A stretch of 63,249 nt of DNA, counting the filler, from Collodictyon triciliatum (Eukaryota): NCBI GenBank assembly GCA_043381765.1. It is 10 parts of 10 records of this genome, joined end to end, with 100 filler letters (N's around TTAATTAATTAA, not from the genome) between each part and the next. Parts side by side here need not be neighbours in the genome. Positions count along the whole stretch, not along the records: positions 44,373 to 50,599 come from JBHJMP010004627.1; 9 more parts are not named here. One strand, written 5' to 3'. Below are positions 6,243-59,499 of this stretch, piece after piece (position 1 is the stretch's first letter; each line of letters opens with the position of its first letter). A program made the position numbers and the translations under genes. The notes beneath the pieces are model-generated. The model searched no databases, was not told the origin of the DNA, and saw only the letters and a program-made list of their open reading frames with translations.

Positions 6243-6342
6243 NNNNNNNNNNNNNNNNNNNNNNNNNNNNNNNNNNNNNNNNNNNNTTAATTAATTAANN
6301 NNNNNNNNNNNNNNNNNNNNNNNNNNNNNNNNNNNNNNNNNN
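6243..6342. other. Artificial contig-joining spacer N44-TTAATTAATTAA-N44 (same spacer at 12582-12681, 18921-19020, 25263-25362, 31602-31701, 37938-38037, 44273-44372, 50600-50699, 56925-57024)
   Basis: Nine identical 100-bp spacers carry a six-frame stop linker. The segments between them are 6225-6242 bp and roughly size-sorted. N runs at 4321-4377 and 10137-10178 lack the linker and are ordinary scaffold gaps. Confidence 0.98.
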
Positions 6343-9683: not shown

Positions 9684-10347
9684 AAAAGGATTATTGACGA
9701 CGTGAAACCGTTCGATATAAAAGGAAAAACGGTTACTTATTTCTGGAAGTTATATTGAAAATCAAAAATGTTGCTATTTACAACTAATGAATTGATTCTC
9801 AATGGATTTCTTTAGATTTAATACACAGTTAAGTAGCAATCTGAGGATATCTGCACAGACGCCGTTTACTCCAATGGCAAGTGCAGCCCAATCACGCAAT
9901 ATGTCAAGGGGCAAAGAGTCCAACCAATGAATCCGCGTGATAGAGAGCGGCCAAGCAAGAAATGTCAGTACGGACTCGAACCGCCGGATATATGGTTTGC
10001 TGAAGAGGCGAACAGCACGGCCATCGCACGTTCTTCATTTTGAAAGAGACGTTAGTTTAGACAGGTTTAAACAAAATTCTATGACAGGAACTAGAACTTC
10101 AAAATAGAACAAAAAAAAAAAAAAAAAAAAAAAAAANNNNNNNNNNNNNNNNNNNNNNNNNNNNNNNNNNNNNNNNNNAAAAAGGGAAAGAGAAACAACT
10201 TGTGGACAAGAGAACGCACCCGACCAAACCTCTGGTCTCGGTATGTGTTTCCAAAACTAACATTTATTTAACTCGTCCAATTGGAACCTATGATATGGCA
10301 CAGATTTACGGCAAGAAACTACAAGAGTTTAAGCAAAGAGGGGGAGA

Positions 10348-12309
10348 ATGAGAGAAAATCATCGCGTCCCGTGGGCGATCGAAGACGTGGACGGTGGTGC
10401 TGGCGTGGATCAAAAAGATAGTACAGGCGACAGCTGGAAAAGTTCGATTAAAAAGCTCAGAGCTGAGCAGAGCGGCTATGCAAGAAAAGAAACAGTATCA
10501 CAACCCCATAACGTGGACGACTTAGAGTCTCCAGAACCAAAAAGGGAAAGCATCCCTGTCCCAAAACTCAACCCACCTCCAAACCTTTCGTGGATCAAAA
10601 GAGATCGGGACAAAACCTCCATGCAACTTTCTCTTGACTTGAACTACCAGTTTTTAAAGAAAAGGAACTCGGTATTCACGTCATTATTTGGGGTCGACTT
10701 TCTTGACTGTATGTATGCCAAGGTGTGGAATAACAAGACAGTCATGAATATCACCTTTATATGTTGGACTGCACTCTCCATAGTTGGGCTCTTGTTCCTC
10801 TCTGAAGTGGAAATATTACCTCCGTGGCTGTACTCATCGGTTCAGTTGGTATTCTCCATGCACTTCCTAGTGTACAATCTCGCCTTCATTAATGTTGGTA
10901 TTCTTCGGAGCATTGCGAAGACATTCAATTTTTGGTTTATGATGTCACACGCACTAGTTTTCTGTATATCCATGATATTGTTGTGGGAAGGAGATTACAG
11001 AATGATTCTCCTGTGCACCCATTACTTCTTGAGTTGTTTTTACATGATTATGATTGACGCATTTATGACTTCAAATGTAAAATTGTTTCTCTTTGGAATT
11101 TTTTTGGGATTTGTGTGCTTGGTGTCAACAGTGGTCATATTAAAAATATCACCAAATGATACGAACAGAAACAGGTCAATTATGTATGATGATATAGAAG
11201 TAATTAATTTATTGTCGCAGACCACTGAGAGTTCTCTAGTTCTCCTGATTTATCTCATTAGAACGACTTTCCTAAAGTATAAGCTAGGGTCTGGTTTCCT
11301 GACACTTTTAGAGGACAATTACAACATAATTCCTGAATTGAACATCAATACTAGCCTTGCTCACATGTCGTTTAGACCATCCATAGATATTAGATCACAG
11401 ATAGATAATCAACTTGGAACAAACAGATTGGTTCAACCTCTAAATAGAGAACAATCATCCTTCAGACTAGCATTTGCCTCTGTTAATCCAAGCCAAGACA
11501 TCGAATTGAGGACAGGCAAGGAAGAATTGAAGGATTTGGTAATACCAAATCATGTGAAAGAAGCGCCAAACGAGTACTTTGTGTTTGGAATTACAGAAAA
11601 ACATACTATACTTTTTAACAATTTTCACACAATCTACCACCAATTCCTAATCGACAAAATCCCTTGGATGAAGAAAATAGTCAAATCAAAAAATTACTTC
11701 CTGTTTTGCGCAATTATCAACGCAACAGCCTTTTCCTCATGTTTTTCAATTGTTTTTGGTGCCAAACTGCCAAATTATCTGAGGATCATGGTGATGATTA
11801 TTATTACATGCTCAATGTTCGTGTTTACACTTCAAATTGTAATAAGTGCACACTTTTCAATTGCGAGAAAAATGTTCAGGTCTTTTGATTACTGGTATAT
11901 GACTTGGTTGAGTTTGCAAGTTCTAGTGAGCGGATGCCTTCTCGTGGAGATGGAGTGGAGTTGCATCGTATGGGTTTGGTATTTCGTCGCCACGCAATGG
12001 TACATGTTCATCGACTGTTTTCCATCAAAGTTGAGGAGATTGACCATGTTTTCAGTATTTGGCATTTTTTTTGGAGTATCATCAGCTGTTTTTTGTAAAA
12101 TTGGGCATGGTTCTATGTTTCAAAGCGATGCAAAAATCGTCATTTCAGGTATCGAGATGATAAAGTTTCGGTCGATAGCCTCTGGAAACTTGTTTTTATG
12201 GGCGATATTTCTTGTCAGATTTTTTTGTAGCTATTGGAAAAACTCGATGCGCTCTCAGTTTATGACAAAAAGGTATCGACTTTTTCTAGTTTCCAGCTTT
12301 ATCAAATAG
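10348..12309 (+). CDS. Intronless 653-aa polytopic membrane protein with two homologous multi-TM halves
   Basis: Long ORF with two hydrophobic blocks sharing motifs: ILRSIAKTFNFWFM / IARKMFRSFDYWYM, FYMIMIDAF / WYMFIDCF, LLIYLIRTTF / WAIFLVRFFC. Confidence 0.85.
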   Translation: MRENHRVPWAIEDVDGGAGVDQKDSTGDSWKSSIKKLRAEQSGYARKETVSQPHNVDDLESPEPKRESIPVPKLNPPPNLSWIKRDRDKTSMQLSLDLNYQFLKKRNSVFTSLFGVDFLDCMYAKVWNNKTVMNITFICWTALSIVGLLFLSEVEILPPWLYSSVQLVFSMHFLVYNLAFINVGILRSIAKTFNFWFMMSHALVFCISMILLWEGDYRMILLCTHYFLSCFYMIMIDAFMTSNVKLFLFGIFLGFVCLVSTVVILKISPNDTNRNRSIMYDDIEVINLLSQTTESSLVLLIYLIRTTFLKYKLGSGFLTLLEDNYNIIPELNINTSLAHMSFRPSIDIRSQIDNQLGTNRLVQPLNREQSSFRLAFASVNPSQDIELRTGKEELKDLVIPNHVKEAPNEYFVFGITEKHTILFNNFHTIYHQFLIDKIPWMKKIVKSKNYFLFCAIINATAFSSCFSIVFGAKLPNYLRIMVMIIITCSMFVFTLQIVISAHFSIARKMFRSFDYWYMTWLSLQVLVSGCLLVEMEWSCIVWVWYFVATQWYMFIDCFPSKLRRLTMFSVFGIFFGVSSAVFCKIGHGSMFQSDAKIVISGIEMIKFRSIASGNLFLWAIFLVRFFCSYWKNSMRSQFMTKRYRLFLVSSFIK

Positions 12310-12581: not shown

Positions 12582-12682
12582 NNNNNNNNNNNNNNNNNNN
12601 NNNNNNNNNNNNNNNNNNNNNNNNNTTAATTAATTAANNNNNNNNNNNNNNNNNNNNNNNNNNNNNNNNNNNNNNNNNNNNT

Positions 12683-31339: not shown

Positions 31340-31961
31340 TCTGCGTGTGCTTTTGCGTGACCTGTGCGTGAATAGTGCGCCATAAATTGAATGGGATTTT
31401 TGTAATTTTTTAACTATATATCCACACTCTGTGTCAATGGAAAGAAGGAAAAGCTAAAATAAATAAAGGCTTCTTTTTGTTTTCTTTTTGCTTCCTTTTT
31501 GTTTTCTTTTTGTTTTCTTTTTGTTTTCTTTTTGTTTTCTTTTTGTTTTCTTTTTGTTTTCTTTTTGTTTTCTTTTTGTTTTCTTTTTGTTTTCTTTTTG
31601 TNNNNNNNNNNNNNNNNNNNNNNNNNNNNNNNNNNNNNNNNNNNNTTAATTAATTAANNNNNNNNNNNNNNNNNNNNNNNNNNNNNNNNNNNNNNNNNNN
31701 NAAGAAAAAGAAAAAAAGAAAAAGAAAAAAAGAAAAAGAAAAAAGAAAAAAGAAAAAAGAAAAAAGAAAAAAGAAAAAAGAAAAAAGAAAAAAGAAAAAA
31801 AGAAAAAAAGAAAAAAGAAAAAGAAAAAAAGAAAAAGAAAAAAAGAAAAAGAAAAAAAGAAAAAGAAAAAAAGAAAAAAGAAAAAAAGAAAAAAAGAAAA
31901 AAGAAAAAGAAAAAAAGAAGCCATTAATATATTTGTATTTCATAGATTCTTAGTAGCTTTT

Positions 31962-37904: not shown

Positions 37905-38230
37905 CAAATCAAGCAAATCAAGCAAATCAAGCAAATANNNNNNNNNNNNNNNNNNNNNNNNNNNNNNNNNNNNNNNNNNNNTTAATTAATTAANNNNNNN
38001 NNNNNNNNNNNNNNNNNNNNNNNNNNNNNNNNNNNNNAACAAAACAAAACAAAACAAAACAAAACAAAACAAAACAAAACAAAACAAAACAAAACAAAAC
38101 AAAACAAAACAAAACAAAACAAAACAAAACAAAACAAAACAAAACGGAGAGTTCGATTTAGGTTGGAGGGTTTCGTTTTCATGGGGATTATGGCTATGAT
38201 TTTTGGTTGTGATTATAGTCATATTGGATT

Positions 38231-41200
38231 TTATTCGGCCTCCTTTGTGGACGGGTTGCTACGAGAGGGAACGCTCCAGGGCATGGACCCCATGCTTCTC
38301 GCAGCCCTTCTGTTGCTGACCAGGTTTGGGACAGGCTCTGTAAGGGAATAGTGCTGAGTAAAGTACGACTCGCCAGTAGGTCTTTTGTCTTCGTCCATCC
38401 TGCGGCGTTCTTGAATAGCCTTTGCTGCTTGGTTCAGTTCACACTCTTCCACAGAATACAGCGATCTGATTTGTTGGTCGTACATTCTAGAAAGATGTCT
38501 CCCTTCAATTCTTAAAACGATGATTTTGTTCACCAACACCCGGGAATGCTGCGTTGCCGAGTAAAAGTACTCGACGAGGTTGCAGTGGGTCAGCTCAGCG
38601 ATAGTCTGATTTTCGTACTTTTTACACGTTGCATCTATTCTAAACTTTGACAACTCCGACAAATCGGAAATGTCTTGTTGAGAAATATGGAATAGTTCAA
38701 GAAGGACACTCTTGTGACCGTTAATGATATCTTTACCAAACTTCTCCCAAGGTAGATGAAAGACCTTCAGAAACAAACTGCGAAATCCCATGTCCCAAAG
38801 CCATTGGACGAATTCTCCGTGAAACATGTCTTTTATAAATGAGTATTTAGCAGGGAGCTTTCTGTATACAAATGTCTCTGTTATTGGGTCGTTCGAGGTA
38901 GAAAAAGATTCTATGTAATCCAATATATCGTCCAGAGTAGGTCGCAGTTTATAGTTTTGTCTCCAGCAAGCTTCAATTAATTTGTGGAAAGCAAATGGTG
39001 TATCAGATGGTATTTTAGGCCTCATACCTCGGATGGTAAGGTTTCGTGTGTAACTTTCGTTCAAAAATGGCTCGGTGCCCGAAAACATATACCAAAGCAG
39101 CAGGCCAAAGGCATATATGTTACTAGGCGTCCCACGATGTCCGACGTTGATTCCCTCATAAGGCGCGTATTCAGGGCCGTCTTCGTCGTAAAAAGACTTA
39201 CAAACCACATCATGGATTTCTGGAGCTTGCCAACAACATGTTCCGTATTGCTTCCATTCTCCATACATCGTCGGTAAATGAGACCCCACCTTTTCGCGGC
39301 TGCGTCGGCTTATTATACCAAAGTCTGATATCTTGATTCGATCACTTTCAACCATGATGTTATCTGCCTTGAGATCTTCATGGTAGAGGTCCAAAGTCTG
39401 CATGAATTTTAGGCCCATGCAAATTTGATACGAGTAATTGATGATACATAAGTTGCCTGGTTTTTGGATTCCCTGGTCTTCCATAATTGTTTTCAGTGAA
39501 ACACCTGCATATCCCATGACCATATAAAATTCACCGTCTATCACAGAGGCTTGAAAAATTTCAACTATATTGGCGCAGCCTCTGCACTCTGCCAACATCT
39601 GAGCCTCCAAGATAATGGAATCAAGAACTTGCTGCAATGTCTGCGCCCCACTGGCTCGGATGGGTTGAATTTTAACTACAGCTTTCTTACCAAGATAATT
39701 TTTTGTTAGGTAAACCCTTCCAAACGACCCTTTTGCGATGTACTGAATCAGTTCGATAGGTTCATCCGTCCATATGTTTTGCAGTCTACCACGAATGCTT
39801 CCAAGGTCCGTATCACTGCCCTGTTTCTGGCTGCTGGTATGTTGTCGACGTTTCACTTGGGATTGCCGCTCCATAAGCCCTATTTTATATATTTACTCCT
39901 TAATTGAAGAAATTCCCTTCATAATAAATTTATCGATTTTTCTGTTAAATGTTTTTTTTTCAGAGAATTTATGAAAAGTGATGAGAAATTGGATAAAAAA
40001 GCCTATTGAAAAGCCACCTTCTTCACTGTATACTCTCCCCTTCTTTACCATCATAATATCAAGGTTGTGTCCATAAGTACATCTAGACAGATCTGAGTTG
40101 GTAAAATGCGTCGGTGTCCGAATGATTCCAATACTGGCATGTGCACGACATATGTAGCATTGCATTTCAGAATGTAAAAACACATTGGGTCGGATAGATA
40201 ATATTCTATCCTTCAAAAAGCAAATAATATCAAAACACTCCGGGGATGGTGAGTGATTTGCTTCTACATAGTATTTTCTAACTTTTAGGGTTAGTTTGTC
40301 TCCCTGAATTAAAAATAAAACAATAAAATCACTTCCTGGGACCAGATCAAATGATACATGAGGTCTATCTCTGTCTGTATATGTTGGATAGTTCTGCCTC
40401 CCAGAAAGATGAATCAGAGCAGTATTTTTAAAAAAGTAGTTTTGGAAAGTTGCATCAGCTGTCGTATTTTTTGAAAGTCGAAGTGCATGTATGATAATAT
40501 TGCTTTGGTATGACTCATCTATTCCTCGTTGACTTATTAAATCGATGGATACTTCTGAAATGCAGTTCCATTCAGGCGTTTCATTCCATATTGCTTTTAG
40601 ATTTTCATTCAACCTCATCAAAAACGGAAACGCGATACATTCTTTGTTAAACATGATTCCAAGTCCAAATCGGTCAAACATATTCAAAACCAGTGAAAAT
40701 ATTTCATCCTCGATAGTAATACCAAACAATCTGTTCAGTTTATCTCTTAGTTGTTTGAGAAGCACAATCCCACCATGTTCTTTGCCAACTCCTCTGAAGC
40801 TAAAAACACATCGAAATATATTTACCAAGAAGCATGGGTCCAAAAAAACTGTGCTGCTAAGGCCTTGAATTCTGTGATACCATACAACCGACCCCAACTC
40901 ATGGAGGAAAATCATGGATGCCTTACAGGTACTGCTATCCATGTTCAAAGTCGAGCTGCAATAGTGTTGGAGCATATCGAAGGGCATATATTTGGTTGAA
41001 TTTCGACAGCCATCGACATAGTTTTTTAACTGAAAGTACGATAAAGGTATATGTTTGTTTACATATTCAAGACTCAGCATCCCTCTATAGATAGAACTTT
41101 TCAGTTCAGATATACCAACACCGGTGCGGTTACTGACCTTGATACTAGTCTCTATAAAAAAGTGCCCTGGATATCTTTTGACTAGTTCATCAATGTCATT

Positions 41201-43506
41201 CTGCATTCTGCGGGACCATAATATTTCCTCCTTATCCTGGTGCGTTCCAACGATGATAACAGTAGATTGCGGAGAAAAGTCATCCATCATCTTAACCCAC
41301 CGGTTTAAATTGTTTTCGGTTATGTATTTATCAAGGCGATATAGAATTAGGATTAGCGCTCCAGGTGTTAGAAAAAAAGGGTGAGTGACCTGAAATTCAT
41401 CCTGTCCCCCAAAGTCCCATGCTGTTACAGTGATGGAATCCCCTTGATTGTCGACAGAAGAATCAAAAAGTACCAAATCAATAAATTCAATACCGTCTGT
41501 TCTTTCTTTCTCAAGTGAAACTGCACTTTTAAACTCGTTTCCATGTTGAGATATGGAATCCACGATTGTAGATTTCCCTGCCATGGATTCACCTAGAATA
41601 AGAAGTCTTCCACGCGACCATTTTTTCGAACCGCCTTTCCTCGTTTCTCGAATGAAAATAAAAAGCCCTTCAGAACCTTGACTGATAACATTTTGAGGAA
41701 CATTCTCTATAGGGTTTCCTTCGACGAGCAAACCAGAGGTCAATTTATTTAAATCTCCTATAACATCGGGTAAAATACTGACCTGGATTGTTTTTTTTTT
41801 GGGCGTGTGTTAACTTTCTTGATTTATACCATATTATCTCATATAGACCTTCCGATACATAACATGCATAAAGCCAAACACGACCACGTGGAGAGAAAGT
41901 TTGATTATAACCTCTCTTTTTTTTTCAAAAAAAAAAAGCATTGTTTCATTTTCGAATACCTTATTGAATCTAATGTCAAGCATCGACAAATCTTGCAAGT
42001 TTTGGACAAATTGGGGTATACATGTTATCTGCGGTGTGTATAAATATTTTCATATTTGGCTACTTTTAACAAGCCATTTTAATATATCTGCTTCAAAATT
42101 TTAAAAAAAAAAAGGATAGAAAAGGGGAAAGAAAAACAACATACGAGATTACAAGACAAGTCTAGGTGTCGTATGTCCCCCATAAGACGTAAACACACAG
42201 GAAATTCGACCAGCTAAATATCTGGAGTAAGTAAACATCACTAAATAATACATAAATTTATCAAGTACCTGATTTCTTCGGAGACAGAGTTTCCTGATAC
42301 TTGTTAATGATGAAAAATATGTAGGGAGAGAACTGATCTGCCAGGTATAAATTAGGTTAAGATGAGTCATGCTAGTCCATTGATATCATAAACTAGGATA
42401 ACATAGGCATTAAGAAAATGTGTTTCAGTAAAAAAAAAAAAAAAATAGACTTTGTTGAAGGAGAAATCAATGGCTTCAAGTGAGGAGCACTGATACAGGT
42501 AATCTGAAATGTCCTCCAAATCTTTGTTGGTTGCCAGAAGGTCATACATATCGAATAGTATTGTGGATTTTTCTAGGTCACTAGCTTTGGAATCTAATAC
42601 CCGTTGCATCTCTCCCCAACTAGGTATCTTAGTGAGTGTAATTGGTATTCGTATTACAGCACTATTTTTACTCTTCAAGTTCAATTTTTTCAACCGCGTG
42701 AGCATAGAAATTCCACTATCCAATAATTCAATCTATTTCGTTGTAGAAAGAAGGGCAATAAATTAGATGAATTAGAATTGCTTGATGATCCTATTTTTTT
42801 TGCCGTAAGAAGTGTAAAAAACAAACAAACATTAACTAAAGGACATGCTTTTTTCTATGTATAAAATAGTGAAATTTTAAAGTATTGAAACGATTTAAGT
42901 TCATCAAATATTCAATAGTTATCAACAACAAACTGTGTTGTCACTTATGTCCAAACACGTCATTTTTTGTAAGGCAGAAACTCCCAGCGGTAGAAACGAG
43001 AGCTGGTTCTTTTCAGCATACAGCCCATACAGTGATGTTAATAGCGATATACTACTCGGCAATTCTCTCAGGCGATTACCTCCAATCCACAGTGAGTAAA
43101 GATTATACAGATTTGAAATACCGAGTGAGAGGCTCTCGATCTTATTATTTGCAATAGACAAAAACTGAAGATTGGATAGATGGTCTAGGAAAGAAGGATA
43201 GGTGTCTAGCTCGTTATTGTTAAGGAAAAGCGCCTTCAATATTCTCATATTCCGAAATCCGTCAGGAAGCTCAGTGATATTATTTCTCTGTAGGTAAAGT
43301 GCCCGCAGGGAGGAGAGATGAGACAATTTCTCAGGAAGTGTTTGAAGACGGTTTCCAGCCAGGTCGAGCTCTTGCAAGCGGGTGAGTGTGATAATCTCTC
43401 TGGGGATTTCGTGAAGGCCACGGTTTGACAGGTTGACATCTGCTTTGGAGGAAAGGGCGTTGAAGTCTATCTCACTCCCAAGCTGCGTGATGCTTCGGGT
43501 ACTCAT
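38231..43506 (-). CDS. Roco protein kinase (LRR-ROC-COR-TKL kinase-SAM-like tail), about 1490 aa
   Basis: Exons 43506-42934, 42732-42451, 42337-42269, 42213-42145, 42028-41960, 41782-40018 and 39879-38231 join in frame. LRRs, then ROC (GESMAGKST, TDGI, WDFGGQ, VGTHQD, VSNRTG), COR (FLHELGSVVWY, VFLDP), and kinase (GSFGRVY, VVK, HEDLKADN, DFG, APE). Confidence 0.95.
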
Positions 43507-44372
43507 ACGCGGCAATCTGTATTGATTTGGTTTGCAAAAATCTTTGTGGATAGCTTCTCACAAGCAGGTCGGATGTGATCGAATCGAACTTGAGATGATC
43601 ATGTCATACATGTGGAATAATGTTTAGGGAAGTCCCACCAGATTTATTCCTTTCCTCGATTTTTTTTCGTTTTCTTTGTCTCTTTTTTCTTGTTTCTTTT
43701 TGTTCTTTTTGTTCTTTTTGTTCTTTTTGTTCTTTTTGTTCTTTTTGTTCTTTTTGTTCTTTTTGTTTTCTCGTTTTCATTTTCATTCTCATTTTTTCGT
43801 TTTTTAATTTTTCATTTTTTCATTTTTTCATTTTTTTCATTTTTTTCATTTTTTCATTTTTTCATTTTTTTCATTTTTTCATTTTTTTCATTTTTTCATT
43901 TTTTTTGATTTTCTTATTTTTCATTTCTTTTTCTCTTTTCTCTTTTTTCTTTTCTTTTTCTTTTTTCTCTTTTTCCTGATTTCTTTTTCTTTTTCTTTTT
44001 CTTACTTTTTCTTTTTCTTTTTCTTTTTTCTTTTTTCTTTTTTCTTTTTTCTTTTTTTTCTTTTCTTTTTTCTTTTTTCTTTTTTCTTTTTTCTTTTTCT
44101 TTTTCTTTTTCTTTTTCTTTTCTTTTTCTTTTTGTTCTTTTTGTTCTTTTCTCTTTTTCTTTTTTCTTTTTTCTCTTTCTTTTTTCTCTTTCTTTTTTCT
44201 TTTTCTTTCTCTTTTTCTTTTTCTTTTTCTTTTTCTTTTTCTTTTTCTTTTTCTTTTTTCTTTTTCTTTTTTNNNNNNNNNNNNNNNNNNNNNNNNNNNN
44301 NNNNNNNNNNNNNNNNTTAATTAATTAANNNNNNNNNNNNNNNNNNNNNNNNNNNNNNNNNNNNNNNNNNNN

Positions 44373-46285
44373 TGTCAAAATCAAGCTGAAATCAGGAAAG
44401 CTCCACATTTTGATTGTTGTGTCATCACTTCCTGACAAAAATTTCGTGCCATCTGAGAGAACTGATATTCCGTTTACTGGACCTCCATGTTCACTCAGAA
44501 TATGTATGGTCACTCCATTTGAATAATTCCAAATTCTAATTGTATTATCACTGCTTCCAGAAATAATTTTAGAGCCATCAGTAGAAATCGAAACAGTTCT
44601 CACTATTCCAGTGTGCCCATTGAGTGTGCGAATTAAAATTCCATCTAAAATGCTCGTAATTTTGATTGATTTATCGCTGCTTCCAGAAACAATTTTTGTT
44701 CCATCTGATGTGATTAGAACGCAGTTCACAGAATCAGTGTGAACTTTTATATCATGGACTAATGTTCCATCAAAAAAATTCCAAACCTTAATTGTTTTAT
44801 CAGCACTGCCAGATACAATTTTTGAATTATCAGGAGTTAAAGCAACACTCGTTACTATTCCAGTGTGTCCATTCAACGCTCTAATCAATTTTCCATCAGA
44901 TATGTTTGTTATTCTTATTATTTTATCGTTGCTTCCTGATATAATTTTTGATCCATCTGAAGTTAAAGCAACTGAGTTGACTGATTCAGAATGTATTTCA
45001 AATGATTGAATCAAAGAACCGTCTTCAACATTCCATAACTTGATTGTTTTATCCGAACTTCCAGAGATTATTGTGGAGCCATCTGCTGTTAAAGTTAATG
45101 CGTTAACTTCATTTGTATGTCCAATCAATGTCTCGATTAAATTGCCATTTGAAAGATTCCATATTCTAATGATATTATCTGAGTGCCCTGAAATAAAAGT
45201 TGACTTAGACTGAGAAGAAATGATACTTGTAACTTTGGAACCTCTTGAGTAAACAGGACTTCCATCATTAAAATTCCAAAGTCTTACAGTTCGGTCTACG
45301 CTCCCAGAAATAATTTTTGAGCCATCAGGGGATACGAAAACACTTAGAACAGTACTAGTATGGCCAGACAAAGTGCGAATCAATGCTCCGTCAGAAAGGT
45401 TCCAAATTTTGATTGTTCGGTCTATGCTTCCGGAAACGATGTACGAACCATCAATAGTAACAGCAACGCTCCAAATACCATCATTATGACCAATTAATGT
45501 GCGAATCAAATCTCCATCAGAAAGGTTCCAGATTCTGATTGTTTTATCCCAGCTTCCAGAAATAATATTTGAACCATCAATAGTAACAACAACACTCCAA
45601 ACATAATCAGTATGATCAGTCAAAGTGCGAATCAAAGCTCCATTATAAAAATTCCAAAGTCTTACAGTTCGGTCATCACTTCCAGAAACAATTTTTGAAC
45701 TATCAGGAGTAACAGCAACACTTAAAACATCACCAGTATGACCAATTAATGTGCGAATCAAAGTTCCATCAGAAATATTCCAGATTTTGATTGTATTATC
45801 TAAACTTCCAGAAACAATTTTTGAGCCATCAGGAGAAATTGCAACATTGCTAACATAACTAATATGACTAGTCAATGTGCGAATCAAAGCTCCATCAAAA
45901 ATATTCCAAATCTTTATTGTATTATCACTGCTTCCAGAAACAACTTTTGAGCCATCAGGAGTAACAGCAACACTCCTAACAACCCAAGTATGACCAAACA
46001 ATGTACGAATCAAAGCTCCATCAGAAAGATTCCAAATCTTGATTGTATTATCACTGCTTCCAGAGACAATTTTTGAACCATCAGGAGTAACAGCAACACT
46101 CCACACAGTACTTGTGTGGCCAGCTGCAACTGTGTAAATCGAAGAAACTTGTGCAGAGGTCGATGAAATATATACAAGGATGGTGGCAACTAATAGACGA
46201 ATATGTTATAAAAAGAAAAGAGAGTGATTAGAAATGAAAAGGGCTTACCCAGTATTATTTGCTGAAGTTGTGGACTTTTCCTCAT
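44373..46285 (-). CDS. Signal-peptide-bearing WD40 protein, at least 14 repeats of about 42 aa with high internal conservation, 3'-partial
   Basis: Exon 1 (46285-46249), a 59-nt GT-AG intron (46248-46190) and exon 2 give MRKSPQLQQIILVATILVYISSTSA-QVSSIYTVAAGHTSTVWSV..., in frame with ORF 44325..46106. Confidence 0.9.
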
Positions 46286-47879
46286 CGGTGTAGAGCCTAT
46301 TGACGTATTATAATTCATTATAATTTTCGTCTATAAACAGCATCTTTTAACTCTCTTAATTCATCCAATATTTTCTTGTAATTTTCGGCCTTCTGTTTTC
46401 TAATTAATTCGAATATTGTGATTTATATTTGATAGTAACTGATATATAATCGGATTTCCGTTATTTTGAATTTTTGATCGACTAATTCTGAACAAAAATT
46501 GCAATTTTGATTCGAAGTTTTATCACTATTTTCTAAGTGTTACAGAAAAATTCATATAGCATGATAGCATAAGGTGATATGAGATTATAGAAAAAAAGCT
46601 AACGCACAATTTTATAAACTAACATATCTTAGTTGCATGGTATTATATCATTTGACTAAAAATATTTTATAAATGGTAATTGTGAAGTGTAGTTTTTAAG
46701 AATATTTCTCTTTTAACAGCATTTTTAAAATGTAAATTTCGATAGATTTTATAATTTCGCATATAAGTATCATAAAATGGATTAGAAAATTGTGTTGATA
46801 TTCGAGATAATAAATTCATATTTTATTTCAATTTTTGATAATGCTGATAAATTTTGTTTTGTCTTATTCAATCATCATTTTCAGTATAATATCATGTCCA
46901 TAATTTTAGTTAAAATAAATAGATTCTATAGTTCAACTCTAAGTTGAAATTTATGCCAAATAAAGAACCGAAAAATACACTAATTTGCACAAGAAAATCT
47001 ATCTAAAATTTAATAGTATTTAAAAATTGAATTTTAATCTTTGGGTTAAAAATATGCTACGTGAGTTTGACAAGTATATGATCAAAATTTCATTTTTCTT
47101 TTTCTACATCACCAAAAATGGGAAAGATAAAAAATCTGCTCAGTAACCGATTTATTTATGACAAATTGTGATTTAAAAATAAAAATAAATTAAATGTAAA
47201 ACATGAAGCCTTTTAAATCGGTATAATTCAACTTAAATTCGTCGATTATACATAAAATTTCTGATAAACTATTTAAAATTTTGGAATAATGCGAATAATC
47301 ATTCATTTACTCATAATATTGCAAATTAATTAAATTCAGTCGTTTGCATTTACCTCACACTAAATTTCAAAGATAAGATGATACTCATAAAAGCCTAGAA
47401 TTATTTTATTCAAATAAGATCAATAAAGATATGTAAATTCATATGGATCATTATTGTGTGAAGAATTTATAATTTATTCCAATCAATAAATTAATCGCTT
47501 CTATCCAGATAGATTACAAAATGAAATGAGCGCTTTATTTTATCGAAATATTTATATCTAATCCGATGAAAAATTATGAGAAATTAAATTAATTAAGTTC
47601 ATATTTATCGTATGTGAAAAAACTGAGAAAGCAAATCAAATACGGTTTAACTAATATATCGTTCGAAAAAAGACACAAAATAAATTGCTAAAGTCACCAT
47701 TTCAAATAGAGAGAATTCAACACTTTTACCTATCGATTATTTTTAATTTTTGAGGTACAAGGATATTTTTGTTTCCTTACCTTATAATTAACAGAGTTAC
47801 ACAATAAATCCACGAAATCTAATAATCAAGAGAGAGCATAATAAAACCCTGATATCGTCTCAATAAAATGTATCATTAT

Positions 47880-48860
47880 ATCAAAGTATGGAAAAAAGAG
47901 AATGATTTTTTAAAAGATATTGTTGGTAAATTGAGTGAATTATAACCGATGGGTTCCGTTTCGAAGAGATTTGATGTTCCATGGATAAGTGAGTATAGCG
48001 CAGATGTCCAAGAAACTGATGCAATTGTTCTTTTGTATTTTTTTTTTGCTTCAGAATCGTGAGCAACGCTGATGGTATAACTAAGCCTAATTATACTATC
48101 AAACAAAAACATTGCACCATAATTTTCAAAAAAAATATGCAATCTCCCAAAAACCGAATAAAAATATCATCAGTGCTCTAAAATGCCTGGGCCTAACCGC
48201 CCAAGATGCTTCATTGAGGAGAAATAAAGGAATTTTGATTGTACCCATGCTCTCCACGTTCATGATGGGCTTACAAACCTCCATAGAGTTTCAACATAAA
48301 ATGTGAAATAGGTTGAATGAATTACTTCGTCCATTTAGCTAGCAGTAATTTGTAATAATGAAGAACCATATGAATTATTCTAAAATAGAAAATGAATTCG
48401 ATGGCTAGAAAAAATTGCATATCATATAATAAAGAATATTCATGATTATCGGTTCGAATAACTGAACTTGCAATACCTATCGAACAGTCAAGAATGATTG
48501 AAGAAAAGGGACAATTTGTAAACCCGCAGCATAATCCTGAAGGCATCATAATCTAAGAAAAACTTCAGGTGTAAATTTTAAGAATGATTTTTTTAAAAAA
48601 GAGAAGTATTATGCATTATACCACTGATAAAAAGTTTTTATGATGTGAATTACAAAAAATTATAGATGAGGCTTATCTTGATAAACCTAGACATTTGAAA
48701 GTTGCTAATAGTCGGTAAAAAATCAAAGGAAATCGAGATATGGTATGCGAGTAGGCGTGAATTTAATGCTGGTTTTCTTGATTTGACATCTGGGCATAGT
48801 TCTCTCGCTTTTATCAGCCAAGTTTCTGGTGATGGATTACACCACATCAATTTTTACGTA
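47880..48860 (+). pseudogene. Decayed coding-like segment of unknown family
   Basis: Protein-like stretches broken by stops and frameshifts, with one intron-like gtgagt...cttcag. No motif recognised. Confidence 0.25.
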
Positions 48861-49977
48861 TGAACCATTATAATAAAAAAATTACGCAATCGGCGCAAAA
48901 AGTGTTCTTGAAATCGAAAATGATAGTTTATTCAAAATCAAATAATTTTAATATAAATACCTTTACCGTCTTCATAAATATTTCAGATACTATTGTTCGA
49001 GAAAATTGGCTACGTGCGGATCAATATTTACTAACATGGATGTTTATTATGCAGGAATACCGTCTCAGGCGAGCTATATAATAAAAATGCGACATATGTT
49101 TCTTTGGTGAAGATTTTTTATCTCTAAAAAATAAACATGACAAAATAATCTTTTCCTTCACATGATAGTTAATTAATAAATAAAAACCTTTGAAAATGAG
49201 AATGCTTGGATAATGTTGCTCGTGCACATGAGATATTTGAGATATTGATTTCAACCTGAACACAAAAACTAAATATTTTACTTCATGGATAAAAAATGTG
49301 AACCTTTTACACGTCCTGAAGTTAAAATAATAGCTTCTGATTTTTTCTTTCGCTGCTTTTGGTATATCAATATTGTTAATATTTATTTCTCCCGTGGCCC
49401 TGAGGAAAGACCGCCAGTCTAAGACCCTAATCAAACAGAATCTTTTTAATGGAAGAGCACAGAGGTTTAATAATATGAAAAGGGATTTTAAAAACCAGAT
49501 TGCTGTCATCAAATGGCCGATATGAAAGATGCTTCTCATACAAATCGTTTCAAAACAACACATAAAAATGCACGCTCTGGGGTCAAACAGTGTTTCTTTG
49601 CATAAGATAATAGCGTTCGTTCTTTTTTCTTTTATTCTTTAGTCAGTGATTGTAAGCTTGAGGCGGAAGAAATAGGTGAATCCGGGACGAGGAGGGCTTT
49701 GTCTGCTTCCAACACGAGCTTCGCCATCTCCGGAGTCAGGCGATGTGTGTGGTTTATTTGTTTGTGATTAATCAACCCGTGTTCGGAGTTTCGACGAAAT
49801 TCAAAGTGGGATAAGTGTTCGCAATATCAGCAACATACATTTGTGGAAATATAAAGAAAGATGAAGTTGATTACGAATATTCTTCATATTGATACCAATT
49901 ATGGAATTTATGATGTTATTATATTTGGACAAATTTAGCTGCGTATAATACAATATCATGTTACAATAAATATGCAT

Positions 49978-50599
49978 TTGGTTTCTTTTCAACAGTTTTA
50001 TTAAGAGAAATCGAAATGAAGAAGACCACCTTCGCCTCTAGGACAAGAATGAGCTATGGACAAGACAGTGGAAAACCCCGGATTGTGTGGTTGGATTTTT
50101 TGTGTTTTGGGTGGAAAGAAAAAGAGAAAGAAAAAGAAAAAAAGAAAAGGGAGAATGTGTTCTTTCACACGCGGACTATTCTACCCGAGGTGAATCAGCT
50201 CAAACGCGATTTCTGGTTGTATTCGAGACTGACAGAAGAGCGGATAAAGTTGTCGGGTCGATGAAAGTACGCACATGGCAGTTACTTCGATAAGCGATTA
50301 CGACGAGTCCATTCAACCATCTATCACAGACAAGTTTTACATCCTATTTCATTTCACAGGATGAGTCTTATGAGTGGACAACGAGTCACTTTCCTTGCGT
50401 TTCTTGCTGGGCGACTCAGATAGAAAGCGATACATCGTTGTTTGTCTGGAATTATCGGAAGTGGCGCTTGACCGTCCCCTGGCATCGGGACCATGCGTAG
50501 CCGGCAGTGGACTTTGCTTAACCGGAGTATGGATATGCGTTTGTGGTTTTAGAAACATACGCTCCTGCTTGCTCGGACTGCCTTTGGTGTGTGAAGTTC
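49978..50599 (-). mobile_element. 3' end of a dispersed repeat, probably a retroelement (ORF tail, 3' UTR with AATAAA)
   Basis: 49978-50092 is a near-identical reverse complement of 50700-50814 on a different contig. A minus-strand ORF ends at 50349, and the contig breaks inside the element. Confidence 0.6.
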
Positions 50600-50699
50600 N
50601 NNNNNNNNNNNNNNNNNNNNNNNNNNNNNNNNNNNNNNNNNNNTTAATTAATTAANNNNNNNNNNNNNNNNNNNNNNNNNNNNNNNNNNNNNNNNNNNN

Positions 50700-50823
50700 A
50701 ACCACACAATCCGGGGTTTTCCACTGTCTCGTCCACAGCTCATTTCTTGTCCTAGAGGCGAAGGCGGTTTCCTCGGCTTTGTTTTCTCTCAATAAACTGT
50801 TGAAAAGAAACCAATAAAAAAAA
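50700..50823 (+). mobile_element. Second copy of the same dispersed repeat 3' end
   Basis: aaccacacaatccggggttttccactgtc...aataaactgttgaaaagaaaccaa, followed by a short A tract. Confidence 0.65.
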
Positions 50824-53089: not shown

Positions 53090-55084
53090 ATGACATGGAA
53101 TTCAATGTCTTTTGCAGTCGTCTTGCTATTGGGTGTGTTATTAATTTTTATGATTTTCATGTTTTCTTATTGAACCAAACGCATGAAACTTATTTTGAAT
53201 ACATTTTTAGGATGAATAATCTGCAACCCAGTGTTATGTTAAAGGACAAGACTACTTGATTCGCACATTGCTAGGACACTCTAATCACAGTCGAAGAGTA
53301 GCTGTTTCTTCTGATGGTGCGAAAGCTGTTTCTGGAAGCAACGATGAAACAATAAAAATCTGCAATCTTTCTGATGTAACTTTCATTCGCACATTGAGTG
53401 GTCATACTGATGCTGTTTGTAGCGTTGTTGTCTCTTCTGACGGCTCAAAAATTGTTTCTGGAAGTATGATAATACAATCAAAACTTGGAACCTTTCTAAT
53501 GGAGCTTTGGTTCTCACATTTACTGGTCATACTCATAACGTATTTGGTGTTGTTGTTTCTCCTCATGGTTAAAAAATTGGATCTGGAAGTCGAGATACAA
53601 CGATTAAAATTTGGGGCATATCTGAGATGGCTCTTCAATTCCGTTCAAAGAGCAAGTCCCGCTCCAACCTCAACCTCAATCTTAATATCAATCCCAAGAT
53701 GAATACCAATATCAACTCAATTCTCATATCAATCTCAGTTCGAGTCCCAATTCTAATCTCCTCCAGAGTCTCCTGCCATTCGCTCTGTAGAATGATATGA
53801 AAAGAAAAACTCGGAGAATTTTGGATTCGAGGTGGAGATTTATAAAGGCATCGCAGTGATTTCAGTGCCATTCTGCCGTACACCAAAAACCCCGGAGAAG
53901 TGCCATGGCAGCTTCATTCTTACATACAAGTTTGATGGGATATCCGGTTTGTAAATTGGACTTAGCAAAATCAAGAATCCGTTCCTCAATCTAGACAATA
54001 TGTTTGACTTCAACATAATTTTGAATGCGCACTATCTGATAGTCTCTGCAACGAAGTTAAAGTACATAAACACTGAAATCGGTGTTTTAGTTTTTTACAC
54101 ATGGAACGCAGGGCAAGATGCGTTCGTCAAAGACTCCATCATCTGCTACAGAAATACATCGAAGAATTTCCAACTCGGTGCTGCCATCTCAAATGTCAAC
54201 ACCATTGTAGCCATAGGAATGCATGTATATGACCATTCTGGAGTTGCCACAAACACCGGATGTGCACACATATACAAAAGGATGGACAATGGCGGATGGG
54301 GCACGAGAGTCACCATTACTGCTCCGAACCCAAAGCTGAATGACCGCTTCGGCCAGTCCGTGCCCCTTGGAAGCGTAACAATATTGGCGGTATCCAACAA
54401 TCCCGAGACAGTTTTCGACCAAATTGTGTTTGTCAATGAATTCAAGGACAGATAATGGAAGGTTTCATAGACCAACACTGACGCCAACGAGCTCGGATTT
54501 GGATGGGTTATTGAGTTCAATGCAAACGTCTCTATGTTTCCGCTGTGAATGACGGGAGCATTGCCACGAACACCGGGTCGATTCTGAGCTACACTCTGAA
54601 TGACGATGGCCAATATGCGTTTGCATCCACAATCAAGCCAAATACTGTCGTTGCTGGGAAGCATTTTGGATTCAGCTTCAGCTTTTCTACGGATGGAGAC
54701 CGACTTGCTGCGGGAGCAAAGCCCTGTGCAAATGGGTAAGCCTGCAACATCAAGGGTTTGTTACCTGATTTCCGTTGATTTTTTTTGTATTTACTTTTCT
54801 CTTGCACACTAGCTCAATTATATTCCCGTCGCATAAGTTCGATGCATTTGTTCACAAAGAGTGGGAATGATTGGAGCGAATACTACTATGTGGAGTCTCC
54901 GGTATCCGACGGCTCTGATGCGTATGGATTTGATGTCGATCTTGAGGAAAGCAATATCCTGGTCTCTGCTCCATATGACAGCAGCGCTTCGCAGAAGGGA
55001 AAGGTCTACTTCATCAAGAAGCAAAACTACCTCTCTCTTGATTACTTTCTTGATGCCTTCATCATACACAACACAGCCAGATGA
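53090..55084 (+). pseudogene. Pseudogene: signal-peptide-like exon, WD40 repeats, S/T/P stalk, FG-GAP (integrin-alpha-type) propeller repeats
   Basis: WD40 units resemble those at 44373-46285 (IRTLSGHTDAVCSVVVSSDGSKIVSGS), with a 1-nt frameshift near 53467 and an in-frame TAA. Then SPAPTSTS..., ENFGFEVEI, DRFGQSV, HFGFSFSFSTDGDRLAAGA and DAYGFDVDL...LVSAPYDSSASQKGKVYF, with further stops. Confidence 0.8.
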
Positions 55085-55400: not shown

Positions 55401-56924
55401 TTAAGCTGATGTTTTCTTTCTCCACTCAGCTGCTTTTTCAGTGTCCTTCTCAACGCCCCATCCATTTTCATAGCACTCAGCCATCATTTGAGCCTGGAAC
55501 TTTGTGAACTTACCCTGCTCACAATAGGCAGCAAAGCCCGCATCAAAGGAAGCAGCACCGATTGAAAGTAGGAGAGATTTGTTGAATTGATTCAATCCTG
55601 TGGCATTACTGATTTGGATGTTTCCACCTTGCAGCTTTCTTGGGCCGATAATCTGGACTGTCTTCGCATCTTGGACTCTGATGGTATCAATCATATTCAT
55701 CGCATCACTTGTTCTGTTGAATACAGCAATTAAGTGGTCTGGCTTTTCTTTCTTGACTAGGTATTTTCCTTGGGTGTAGGTCACTTCTGGTTTTTGCATG
55801 CTGTACGTTTGGTTTCCATTTGCTACATCCCAAATACGTATAGTGTTATCATAACTTCCAGAAACCAGCCAATTTTCACCATTCGGTCCTTGAATACTAC
55901 AAATATTTATCACAGTACTTGTATGGCCTTCTAATAATTGGATTTGGTTTCCTGTGGCTACGTCCCAAATACGTATTGTTTCATCCTGACTTCCCGAAGC
56001 CAACCAATTTTCACCATTCGGCCCTTTAATACTGCAAACACTGTTGACTTCGCTTGTATGGCCTTCTAATAATTGGATTTGATTTCCCGTGACTACGTCC
56101 CAGATACGTATTGTTTTATCATGACTCCCAGAAGCTAACCAATTTTCCCCATTAAATCCTCGAATACTGCAAACACCCATGACAGGACTTGTATGGCCTT
56201 CTAATGTTTTGATTTGGTTTCCTGTGGCTACATCCCAAATACATATTTTTTTATCATAACTTCCAGAAGCCAACCAATTCTCACCATTCGGCCCTTTAAT
56301 ATTGCTAACACAACTGACATCTCTTGCATGTCCCTCTAATTTTTGGATTTGGTTTCCTGTGGCCATATCCCAAATACGAATTGTATTATCACGACTTCCA
56401 GATGCAAGCCAACTTTCACCACCCGGTCTTTGAATACTGCAAACGCTTTTGACATAGCCTGTATGACCCTCTAATGTTTTGATATCTTTTCCAATTCCTA
56501 AATTCCAAATACGTATTGTCTTATCCTGACTTCCAGAAGCCAACCAACTTTCACCATTCGGTCCTCGAATACTGCAAACACAATTGACATCCCTTGAATG
56601 TCCCACTAATGTCTTGACATGACTTCCTGTCGCTACATCCCAGAGACTTATTGTTTTTGACTCACTTCCAGAAGCCAGCCAACTTTCACCATTCGGTCCT
56701 TGAATACTGCAAACGCTATAAACAAAATCTGTATGGCCTTGCAATTTATCATAAGGAATTCCAAATTTCACACTATTCATATTTGCATTATCAAATTCGC
56801 AATCACCAAGCATCGAATTCGTAAAATCAACACCATCCAAGTTAGCACCAGTGAAATTGGCTCCATCAATCATTGAATTACTGAGATTCGCATTCGGAAT
56901 TTTAATGTTTGATAGATCCATACC
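55401..56924 (-). CDS. Pentapeptide-repeat, 7x 45-aa highly conserved WD40, Sel1-like C-terminus; 5'-truncated, NLR/STAND-like architecture
   Basis: Intronless ORF: DLSNIKIPNANLSNSMIDGANFTGANLDGVDF...VKFG; seven GH...SVCSIxGPNGExWLASGSxDxTIRIWD units; QISNATGLNQFNKSLLLSIGA; AQMMAECYENGWGVEKDTEKAAEWRKK. Confidence 0.9.
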   Translation of the reverse strand, partial: GMDLSNIKIPNANLSNSMIDGANFTGANLDGVDFTNSMLGDCEFDNANMNSVKFGIPYDKLQGHTDFVYSVCSIQGPNGESWLASGSESKTISLWDVATGSHVKTLVGHSRDVNCVCSIRGPNGESWLASGSQDKTIRIWNLGIGKDIKTLEGHTGYVKSVCSIQRPGGESWLASGSRDNTIRIWDMATGNQIQKLEGHARDVSCVSNIKGPNGENWLASGSYDKKICIWDVATGNQIKTLEGHTSPVMGVCSIRGFNGENWLASGSHDKTIRIWDVVTGNQIQLLEGHTSEVNSVCSIKGPNGENWLASGSQDETIRIWDVATGNQIQLLEGHTSTVINICSIQGPNGENWLVSGSYDNTIRIWDVANGNQTYSMQKPEVTYTQGKYLVKKEKPDHLIAVFNRTSDAMNMIDTIRVQDAKTVQIIGPRKLQGGNIQISNATGLNQFNKSLLLSIGAASFDAGFAAYCEQGKFTKFQAQMMAECYENGWGVEKDTEKAAEWRKKTSA

Positions 56925-57024
56925 NNNNNNNNNNNNNNNNNNNNNNNNNNNNNNNNNNNNNNNNNNNNTTAATTAATTAANNNNNNNNNNNNNNNNNNNN
57001 NNNNNNNNNNNNNNNNNNNNNNNN

Positions 57025-57829: not shown

Positions 57830-58760
57830 GCTTTATATCGACGCATGGGACTAACACAAAAATGGAGTGCCTCGACTAGCAAATTTCTTATATTGGCTAG
57901 GCCTTGTGCTTGCATGAAAGAGACAAGGCGGGGTTGAATCTCTTTCTCAGCCTCTTTCCACATGTCTCTTCTCACAGGGTCTGACTAATAAAGAACGTGC
58001 AGGTGGCGAAGGAAGCTGTTGAGGAAAGAGACTTGTATGATGTCATTCAGCCTATTATCATGAATGGGTGGCTGGTTGTTGAGTCTTGCTTTGCGTGAGT
58101 ATATGCGTGTTATCCACATAGTCCATAGCAAATGACCTCGCGTCACTGCCCGGAATGTTTTTGCCTCTGGACGCAGCTGTTGCAGAGGTCCAAATATCCC
58201 CTGGATTGGGCCAACGGCTGCAGCCGTCTTGAGTGTCAGTCGAATAATCTCACCGGCTGTTTTGCGCAGGTTTTGAGCGAAGGGACATTGCACAAATGTG
58301 TTTTCAATCGATTCATCACGGTTGCTGTAAAGTGTGCATTGTCGGGAGACTTTGCCAGATTTTGCCGCGCGTGTGCCTATCCATAGCTCCCTATTGGCGA
58401 TATTAACATCAGAAAGCGATAGATTTGGAAGGACTTGCGGGGTTCGTGCTTGTCTCCAGCTCGCGGTGAGCGGGGTATGGGTGGTGCCTTTGAAGTGGGT
58501 TGCAAGGCAGTCAGCGACAAAGTAGAAGAGAAGTGGGGCTAGATGGCAGTCTTGGTAGAAGCCGCTTTGTCTTTTGGTTTCATCTGTAGGGCTGTGTGCG
58601 GTCAGAACCCTAGTTGTGGCATTGTCCTGCAGCTTCCTGATAAGTTTGGTGAACTTGAAGCAGAATCCTCGCTTTTTTAAGATGATTTCTAAGGCTTCAT
58701 GGTTCGCATAGTCGTATACTTTTTCAAGGTCATAGAATCGTACCGACACACTTGATTCAT
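57830..58760 (-). mobile_element. Degenerate non-LTR retrotransposon (L1/Tx1-like RT plus zf-RVT) with internal deletion
   Basis: DLEKVYD..NHEAL..IL...GF and SGFYQDCHLAPLLF (cf. G.RQGCPLSPLLF), then no YADD, jumping to C...ESIENTFVQCPFA and LWTMWITR. Confidence 0.85.
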
Positions 58761-59499
58761 TTCCATCGACTTCGTATTGCGACTGAGCTTTATGTTCCCA
58801 ATTTATGCACGGCCATGACATCAGTTATCGCGGATTAACTCATAGAAAAGAAATCTGAAATCTTTCCGTGTATCATAAAAATAAAACATTTATTGCATCG
58901 GATCAATCAAAAAAAAAAAAAACCTCTCACCAGAAAAAAAACATCACATGAATTATTCTTAGGCAATGGCAAAAAAATTAACCATGGAAAATAAAAAAGC
59001 GATTGTTTTAGAAAGAATATATGGATGGAAAACTATTAGAAAATTTCATCATAAAACTTGCACTCGTATTGTCCATTTCTTTAGTAGATTGCTATGCGTA
59101 GTTTATTGTGTCACAGAATAAGGAGCGAGAGAGAGAAATACTTTGAGATATACACCCGTTTGTTTGCCATTCGATTGCGCACGAATTTTGAAGGAAGTTG
59201 GTTAGGGTACATGATGCATTCGTACATTAATAAATAACCATACGTGGTCGCCAGTCTTTCACATGAAATGAGTTTACTTTGGTTGGTGTGATGTTGAAAG
59301 CAATCGCCTCGAATAATATGGAACAATCAGACCAATAGTGATTGCTATTGGGATGAGGACATAGGTCGACGGTGACGGGGATGCTCGGCTGGGCGCGCAT
59401 AACGACCATGCCTTTTATACAAAGACGGTTTGTTCCACGAATCTTACTACCAATTTGGTTGTGTTTTTGTTTTCGGTGGGTCGGCAAAATGGTTAAAAA

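Follow-up and report, generated by a model that had tools for sequence, protein, structure and literature searches.

Eukaryotes normally keep their WD40 propellers inside the cell. Among the closest described systems are the HET-D, HET-E and HET-R proteins of Podospora anserina (HNWD/NWD), in which 42-residue WD40 repeats are arranged in tandem propellers (PMC1805685; PMC4986451), as they are in the gene described here. Codons 7, 9, 25 and 27 of the HET-E repeat are positively selected, lie at the top of the propeller and flank the conserved codons 8 and 26, and the repeats themselves are up to 100% identical and are exchanged within and between loci (PMC1805685). HET-E is an intracellular protein with an effector domain and a NACHT domain preceding a C-terminal array, whereas the array of our gene is N-terminal and placed behind a predicted signal peptide. 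For fungal NLRs ‘high internal conservation’ denotes 85% identity over 100 aa (PMC4986451); a broader survey divides repetitive WD40 proteins into a moderately (0.4–0.7) and a highly (at least 0.7) repetitive class (PMC5587647). The repetitive WD40 proteins of both classes, which occur in bacteria, fungi and protists (PMC5587647; 2ymu), share their consensus and top-face variability with our gene; ours differs in being a spliced eukaryotic gene with a recurrent sequon, forming a clade of its own without a supported sister.

Bacteria-like proteins that combine a signal peptide with WD40 repeats (P0014 of Treponema sp. R8-4-B8, P0050, P0052 and P0324) resemble our gene in having the leader directly before the first GH and about 14 repeats. 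Many of them end in a caspase-like or Ig-like C-terminus (labels read from the sequences and listed names); in contrast to our gene they lack an intron and rarely carry sequons, and its descent from them finds no tree support. The plant receptor CRINKLY4/ACR4 exposes a glycosylated extracellular seven-bladed propeller, termed WD40, before a cysteine-rich domain; this propeller has a disulfide per blade and BLIP-II as its nearest structure, whereas ours is built from canonical GH-WD repeats in at least two propellers with one cysteine (10.1101/2020.08.10.245050). Finally, the multipass CRMP receptors known from Toxoplasma and Tetrahymena are described with MAR, Kringle or EGFR-like rather than WD40 heads, carried on a cysteine-rich stalk and a membrane base (PMC9670195), whereas the window holds no stalk or membrane part. 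Here we report a locus of Collodictyon triciliatum that probably represents the 5′ portion of a genuine eukaryotic gene with splicing, encoding a secretory-pathway binding protein head of at least two seven-bladed propellers that belongs to a lineage-specific family.

Gene structure, predicted signal peptide and fold

The window, by which we mean the entire 63,249-nucleotide stretch of DNA that was analysed, consists of ten unrelated contigs of about 6.2 kb each (6225–6242 bases), roughly in descending order of size and many of them with simple repeats at their ends. They are joined by identical artificial spacers (N44-TTAATTAATTAA-N44), so gene neighbours across spacers carry no meaning. Introns, Roco kinases and long regions devoid of genes identify the DNA as eukaryotic.

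6243–6342, 12582–12681, 18921–19020, 25263–25362, 31602–31701, 37938–38037, 44273–44372, 50600–50699 and 56925–57024: artificial spacers

A Roco-type gene (38231–43557, minus strand) with LRR, Roc, COR-A and protein kinase parts across successive ORFs precedes the WD40 gene in the window; fusion or linkage of the two is ruled out, as they lie on separate contigs. The WD40 gene occupies the minus strand of contig 44373–50599 (GC 0.325). It reaches the end of the contig at 44373, which adjoins spacer 44273–44372, without meeting a stop codon; the gene is cut there and its C-terminus consequently lies outside the window.

46249..46285, minus strand: exon 1, 37 nt, with the start codon, a basic n-region and the first residues of the hydrophobic core; splicing predicted
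46190..46248, minus strand: predicted phase 1 intron of 59 nt, GT-AG type (donor GTAAGC, acceptor TAG), with a stop in the coding frame
44373..46189, minus strand: exon 2, with the remaining signal-peptide-like part and the WD40 repeats, open to the contig end
46149..46189, minus strand: rest of the predicted signal peptide, comprising core and cleavage motif, by a rule-based assignment; predicted mature start Q27 at 46148
45246..46127, minus strand: propeller 1, repeats 1–7, mean identity 63%; most variable codons 25, 9, 27 and 7; sequons in repeats 1, 3, 5 and 6
44373..45254, minus strand: propeller 2, repeats 8–14 (8 irregular), mean identity 47% in repeats 9–14; sequons in repeats 8, 10 and 13

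Read without splicing, the frame meets a stop shortly upstream of 46205 and offers no ATG, GTG or TTG ahead of the first GH, and the gene therefore requires an upstream exon. A bacterial gene is ruled out, the in-frame start codon being absent unless the gene is spliced. The original prediction had proposed a small upstream exon and an intron at 46248–46190; we obtained the same model, in which the predicted 37-nt exon provides a signal-peptide-like N-terminus and the spliced frame extends over 618 codons without a stop. The intron contains the branch-like motifs CTAAT and TAAC, is free of AG from donor to acceptor and is non-coding in all three phases (−8.5 to −14 bits in the Markov model); its GTAAGC donor hexamer recurs in the predicted intron of a broken paralog in the window. 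An alternative in-frame ATG at 46318, 11 codons above the exon 1 start, would add 11 residues. Among the eight upstream donor-like sites examined, five belong to an open, phase-compatible exon with an ATG; the 37-nt exon is the closest of these. Three further in-frame acceptors are found downstream (46148, 46130 and 46124), with 65–70% pyrimidines upstream of them; their use would delete the hydrophobic core, and no branch-like motif precedes them in 46189–46130. An upstream NACHT domain, which the original prediction had named as evidence against itself, was not seen on the contig, whose 4.3 kb upstream of the gene include a single ORF above 116 aa (205 aa, no Pfam match).

No 11-residue window of the WD40 protein is more hydrophobic than residues 10–20 (Kyte–Doolittle 3.07), which are flanked by a basic start and a small-x-small cleavage motif that ends at residue 26. 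A signal-peptide-like rule for the exon 2 part, demanding 26 open codons, a hydrophobic 8-mer, a cleavage motif and no charge, and written with the target known, was satisfied by 2 of 7265 non-coding frames (from overlapping windows) and 14 of 20000 shuffles, corresponding to a chance below 0.1%. The coding score of this part of exon 2, for which five further ORFs from the window served to train the Markov model, is intermediate at 0.3 bits, with 8% of non-coding windows as high and 4% of coding windows as low; exon 1 scores −0.9. Putative secretory targeting of the WD40 protein is supported by the signal-peptide-like rule, by the sequon counts given below and by the FG-GAP matches of the broken paralog; the intermediate coding score speaks against it.

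The earlier count of at least 14 WD40 repeats is borne out. Fourteen repeats follow one another at a spacing of 42 residues, shortened once to 39 residues between repeats 7 and 8, and the Pfam WD40 family (PF00400) matches 13 stretches with an E-value of 1.9e-136, placing the protein in the WD40 beta-propeller superfamily. The accompanying description of the repeats as highly conserved is overstated: over all repeats pairwise amino-acid identity averages 51% (range 26–81%, the upper value being the best pair over 42 aa), and the internal identity of 0.55, calculated with an ungapped version of the published metric (PMC5587647), makes the protein ‘moderately repetitive’, below both the 0.7 of the ‘highly repetitive’ class and the 85% applied to fungal NLRs. 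An AlphaFold model based on a 45-sequence alignment (44 homologues) consists of all-beta repeats with a pLDDT of 93 and a pTM of 0.61; single-sequence folding gave a pLDDT of 34. The model is most similar in fold to 2ymu, which we take to be a repetitive propeller of the cyanobacterial type, and then to double propellers. There is one cysteine in the 618 residues, and thus no disulfide adaptation; stability outside the cell would have to depend on the hydrogen-bond network of the repeats and on glycans.

Sequons and the variable top face

Seven N-x-S sequons are present, in repeats 1, 3, 5, 6, 8, 10 and 13, and each is located at the residue after the W/T of its repeat, in keeping with the original observation that the sequon recurs at one repeat position. 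Half of the target repeats (7/14) have such a post-W sequon, compared to 20 of 792 database repeats and 0 of 7 repeats in an intracellular-type WD40 gene of the window; likewise, 7 of the 12 asparagines at this position fall within a sequon in the target, compared to 20 of 226 in database repeats. Since repeats are copies of one another and their sequons are pseudo-replicated, the fair count is taken per protein, and here a sequon fraction of at least 0.5 was reached by 4 of 257 control arrays, one of them without a hydrophobic leader. Three database arrays carry the post-W sequon in 5/7 (L036, frame from 7944), 4/6 (L050, frame from 159) and 3/5 (L062, frame from 6963) of their regular repeats, which means that repeat amplification alone can produce the pattern. 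The sequon residue ends strand c in the AlphaFold model, and from WD40 geometry we assume that this end leads into the loop opposite the variable face. Counted per protein, the excess of sequons gives modest support to glycosylation.

In our repeat register codon 8 is a conserved V and codon 26 a conserved D; the irregular repeat 8 was omitted from the codon analysis. Within repeats 1–7, conservation among the 42 codons is lowest at codons 25, 9, 27 and 7 (exact permutation p 3.6e-5), and the seven blades of propeller 1 display seven different four-residue combinations on their top face. At these four codons pN amounts to 0.65, compared to 0.18 elsewhere, where pS is 0.38; the ratio of top-face pN to pS elsewhere is 1.7 (bootstrap over columns 1.2–2.4), with pS at the four codons themselves being 0.47. 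The same ratio is 0.74 in repeats 9–14. These values compare the repeats of one haplotype with each other and differ in kind from allelic polymorphism.

The site of variation is thereby that of HET-E, and to this extent the analogy drawn by the original prediction stands; it fails for repeat identity, for NACHT (none seen upstream on the contig) and for evidence of repeat exchange, which was not significant here. The shared codons are not diagnostic: of 120 database proteins, 99 have an array with at least five regular repeats, and all 99 of these control arrays are more variable at the four codons (median identity 0.15 vs 0.71 elsewhere; target 0.15 vs 0.68). Top-face excess is a general property of repetitive WD40 arrays and hence does not single out the target gene. 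The four-codon variability is compatible with ligand-driven diversification. The earlier label ‘diversifying’ is weakened because every database array tested varies more at those codons and because the intracellular-type gene of the window does so as well. A search for conversion tracts among 21 repeat pairs produced none that was significant after correction, the best candidate being a 27-nt identical tract between repeats 4 and 7 (p 0.026 raw, 0.55 corrected). The internal identity of 0.55 and the pS of 0.38 suggest that the amplification is old rather than subject to ongoing homogenisation, unlike the up to identical and exchanged repeats of HET-E (PMC1805685). The target uses its top face like the sensor propeller of an NWD protein, yet it is not a member of that group, since no NACHT domain was seen and its identity falls below the threshold applied to those receptors.

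Relatives within the window and in the databases

A second member of the family is present on another contig.

53090..55084, plus strand: broken paralog with many stops and frameshifts

Its parts follow in the order ATG-led hydrophobic segment, intron-like stretch, about 3.5 WD40 repeats, low-complexity Q/S/P/Y linker and FG-GAP-like region, with the hydrophobic segment about 170 bases ahead of the repeats, which are 66–79% identical to those of the target at the DNA level. A reassigned code with sense TAA/TAG was considered for its stops and dropped, since long genes of the window are without in-frame TAA/TAG and the paralog is also frameshifted. FG-GAP is an extracellular module. The two FG-GAP_2 matches downstream have E-values of 6e-5 and 1.2e-3, one of them below the Pfam cut-off (19.4 vs 23); given this score and the broken state of the paralog, its WD40 repeats are presumed to have been joined to the FG-GAP region. 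It possibly represents a second architecture of the family, in which WD40 repeats are combined with an integrin-alpha-type propeller. No GCC-type cysteine-rich stalk turned up within the window.

A tree of three-repeat units (157 rows) unites the paralog with the four units of the target in a single clade (FastTree 0.99), for which no supported sister was found among 152 database units. A grouping with three P-loop-WD40 proteins, obtained with 45 of the 152 candidates (99/96), was gone once all 152 were included, and we therefore claim no donor. The proposed redeployment from fungal NLRs is likewise without tree support.

The intracellular-type gene mentioned above (55404–56924, minus strand) is truncated at its 5′ end and encodes pentapeptide repeats as well as seven WD40 repeats of 45 residues each, with a Sel1-like repeat at the C-terminus, an arrangement that resembles an NLR-like tail. 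Its codons equivalent to those of HET-E are variable too (pN 0.54, p 1.3e-4, ratio 1.4), and it has no sequons.

The protein searches order their matches by the number of repeats, and generic arrays saturate them. Among proteins of near length the best 120 of 7961 matches are 29–52% identical to the target; longer proteins gave 106 matches at E ≤1e-230 with at most 48% identity, and the best 150 representative proteins reach at most 52%. No shorter protein matched at E 1e-88, a cut-off so strict that this says little. In a protein-level scan of metagenomes 80 of 493 relatives were retained, which are 40–60% identical; 77 of these have a frame of regular repeats, none of the 77 frames has a cysteine-rich tail of any length, and a DNA pattern of the subfamily matched no metagenome contig. 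We thus found no close relative by sequence, the listed protein matches being at most 52% and the listed metagenome loci at most 60% identical. The ESM Atlas places the WD40 head with bacterial WD40 clusters. In 65 of 226 matches, and in more among the representatives, the N-terminus is hydrophobic and a regular repeat first appears within 130 residues; named or readable examples of this arrangement are bacterial, and the assumption that repetitive arrays of this kind stay inside the cell accordingly fails for bacteria-like proteins. No match listed, eukaryotic or other, joins a leader and an N-terminal WD40 array to a cysteine-rich stalk. The databases and literature searched contained no example of a eukaryotic signal peptide with repetitive WD40 repeats, although the per-protein tables of the survey (PMC5587647) might hold protist ones, and the literature on extracellular or secreted WD40 proteins yielded the CRINKLY4 structure alone.

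Possible functions and alternative explanations

In the reading that we favour, a secretory-pathway binding head, the signal peptide would be cleaved near Q27 and N-glycans would be attached at the end of strand c in about half of the blades, on the face opposite the ligand face. The outermost propeller would form a rigid ring whose top-face residues at codons 7, 9, 25 and 27 contact an extracellular ligand, either a protein or a surface, and the second, more diverged propeller would be mainly structural. The missing C-terminal part probably comprises further extracellular domains, perhaps with a membrane anchor, and the gene family would be lineage-specific, derived from repeat amplification and composed of living and dead copies. 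A binding tip would fit the outermost propeller, the younger of the two and the one that shows the non-synonymous excess.

The sequence features could also be accommodated without secretion if the gene encoded an ordinary intracellular WD40 array, stand-alone or as the sensor exon of an NLR-like protein, and the signal peptide resulted by accident from reading through the pyrimidine-rich stretch that closes a longer intron, whose true acceptor would be 46130 or 46124. The extra in-frame acceptors with their pyrimidine-rich upstream sequences, four other phase 1 donor-like sites with an open ATG upstream on the contig, the intermediate coding score of the signal-peptide segment and the existence of intracellular-type WD40 genes in this genome, such as the pentapeptide-WD40-Sel1 gene, would be in line with such an arrangement. 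It would demand that the first AG be skipped where no branch-like motif assists the later ones, and it leaves to chance both a signal-peptide-like open stretch of such rarity and the sequon excess, while the contig offers no long ORF upstream to supply the remainder of the protein; we consider it unlikely. We hold it to be similarly improbable that the protein is a luminal or structural scaffold (of the ER, a phagosome, an extrusome or a coat) or that the gene is a decaying copy, the top-face variation in either case resulting from relaxed constraint. Such variation is generic, the paralog is pseudogenised, and the C-terminus beyond the contig end keeps anchor and intact end alike out of view; against this stand 611 open codons under purifying selection off the top face (pN 0.18 vs pS 0.38), and relaxed constraint alone would drive the ratio on the top face of propeller 1 to near 1, rather than to pN in excess of pS.

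A stronger version of the secretory-head explanation, and one compatible with it, envisages an actively diversifying surface receptor, the outward counterpart of HET-D/E, in which repeats are exchanged between blades and paralogs and the top face is positively selected in the recognition of prey, pathogens or self and non-self. The coincidence of the four most variable codons with those selected in HET-E, the confinement of pN>pS to the outermost propeller and the dead paralog speak for this version, but the top-face excess is shared by all database arrays, internal identity and pS point to an old amplification, the 21 repeat pairs are devoid of significant conversion tracts, and pN/pS between repeats is not an allelic measure, with pS raised to 0.47 at the four codons; we entertain it as a tentative proposal that we rather doubt. 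Similarly speculative is the possibility that a protist NLR-type WD40 sensor was turned outward and gave rise to a multigene repertoire of surface receptors for recognising prey or non-self, built on a fold otherwise used by eukaryotes within the cell, diversified at the HET-E codons and reshuffled between blades and paralogs, of which the target would be an older and partly diverged member.

The literature searched does not describe canonical GH-WD propellers in the secretory pathway of eukaryotes, CRINKLY4 being of a different build. Should the binding head be displayed outside the cell with its top face under diversifying selection, it would constitute a new receptor scaffold beside the LRR and Ig repertoires and provide a handle on prey and kin recognition by free-living protists, with four defined codons per blade. 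If secretion alone holds, a cytosolic scaffold would still have been moved to an unusual place, and its adaptation would apparently have relied on glycans and not on disulfides.

Three further features of the window were recorded in passing. An intronless ORF of 658 codons (10333–12309, plus strand) comprises two similar hydrophobic multi-pass halves without a Pfam family; in the ESM Atlas it matches eukaryotic clusters without names at a top score of 0.83, with nothing at 0.9. A decayed non-LTR retrotransposon-like ORF lies at 57985–58824 (minus strand) and has a weak zf-RVT match (E 3.6e-4, below the cut-off). A 116-base element occurs in two copies that are 88% identical (49978–50092 and 50700–50814), 3.7 kb upstream of the WD40 gene and 2.3 kb upstream of the broken paralog in the same relative orientation, and is either a repeat or the trace of a segmental duplication.
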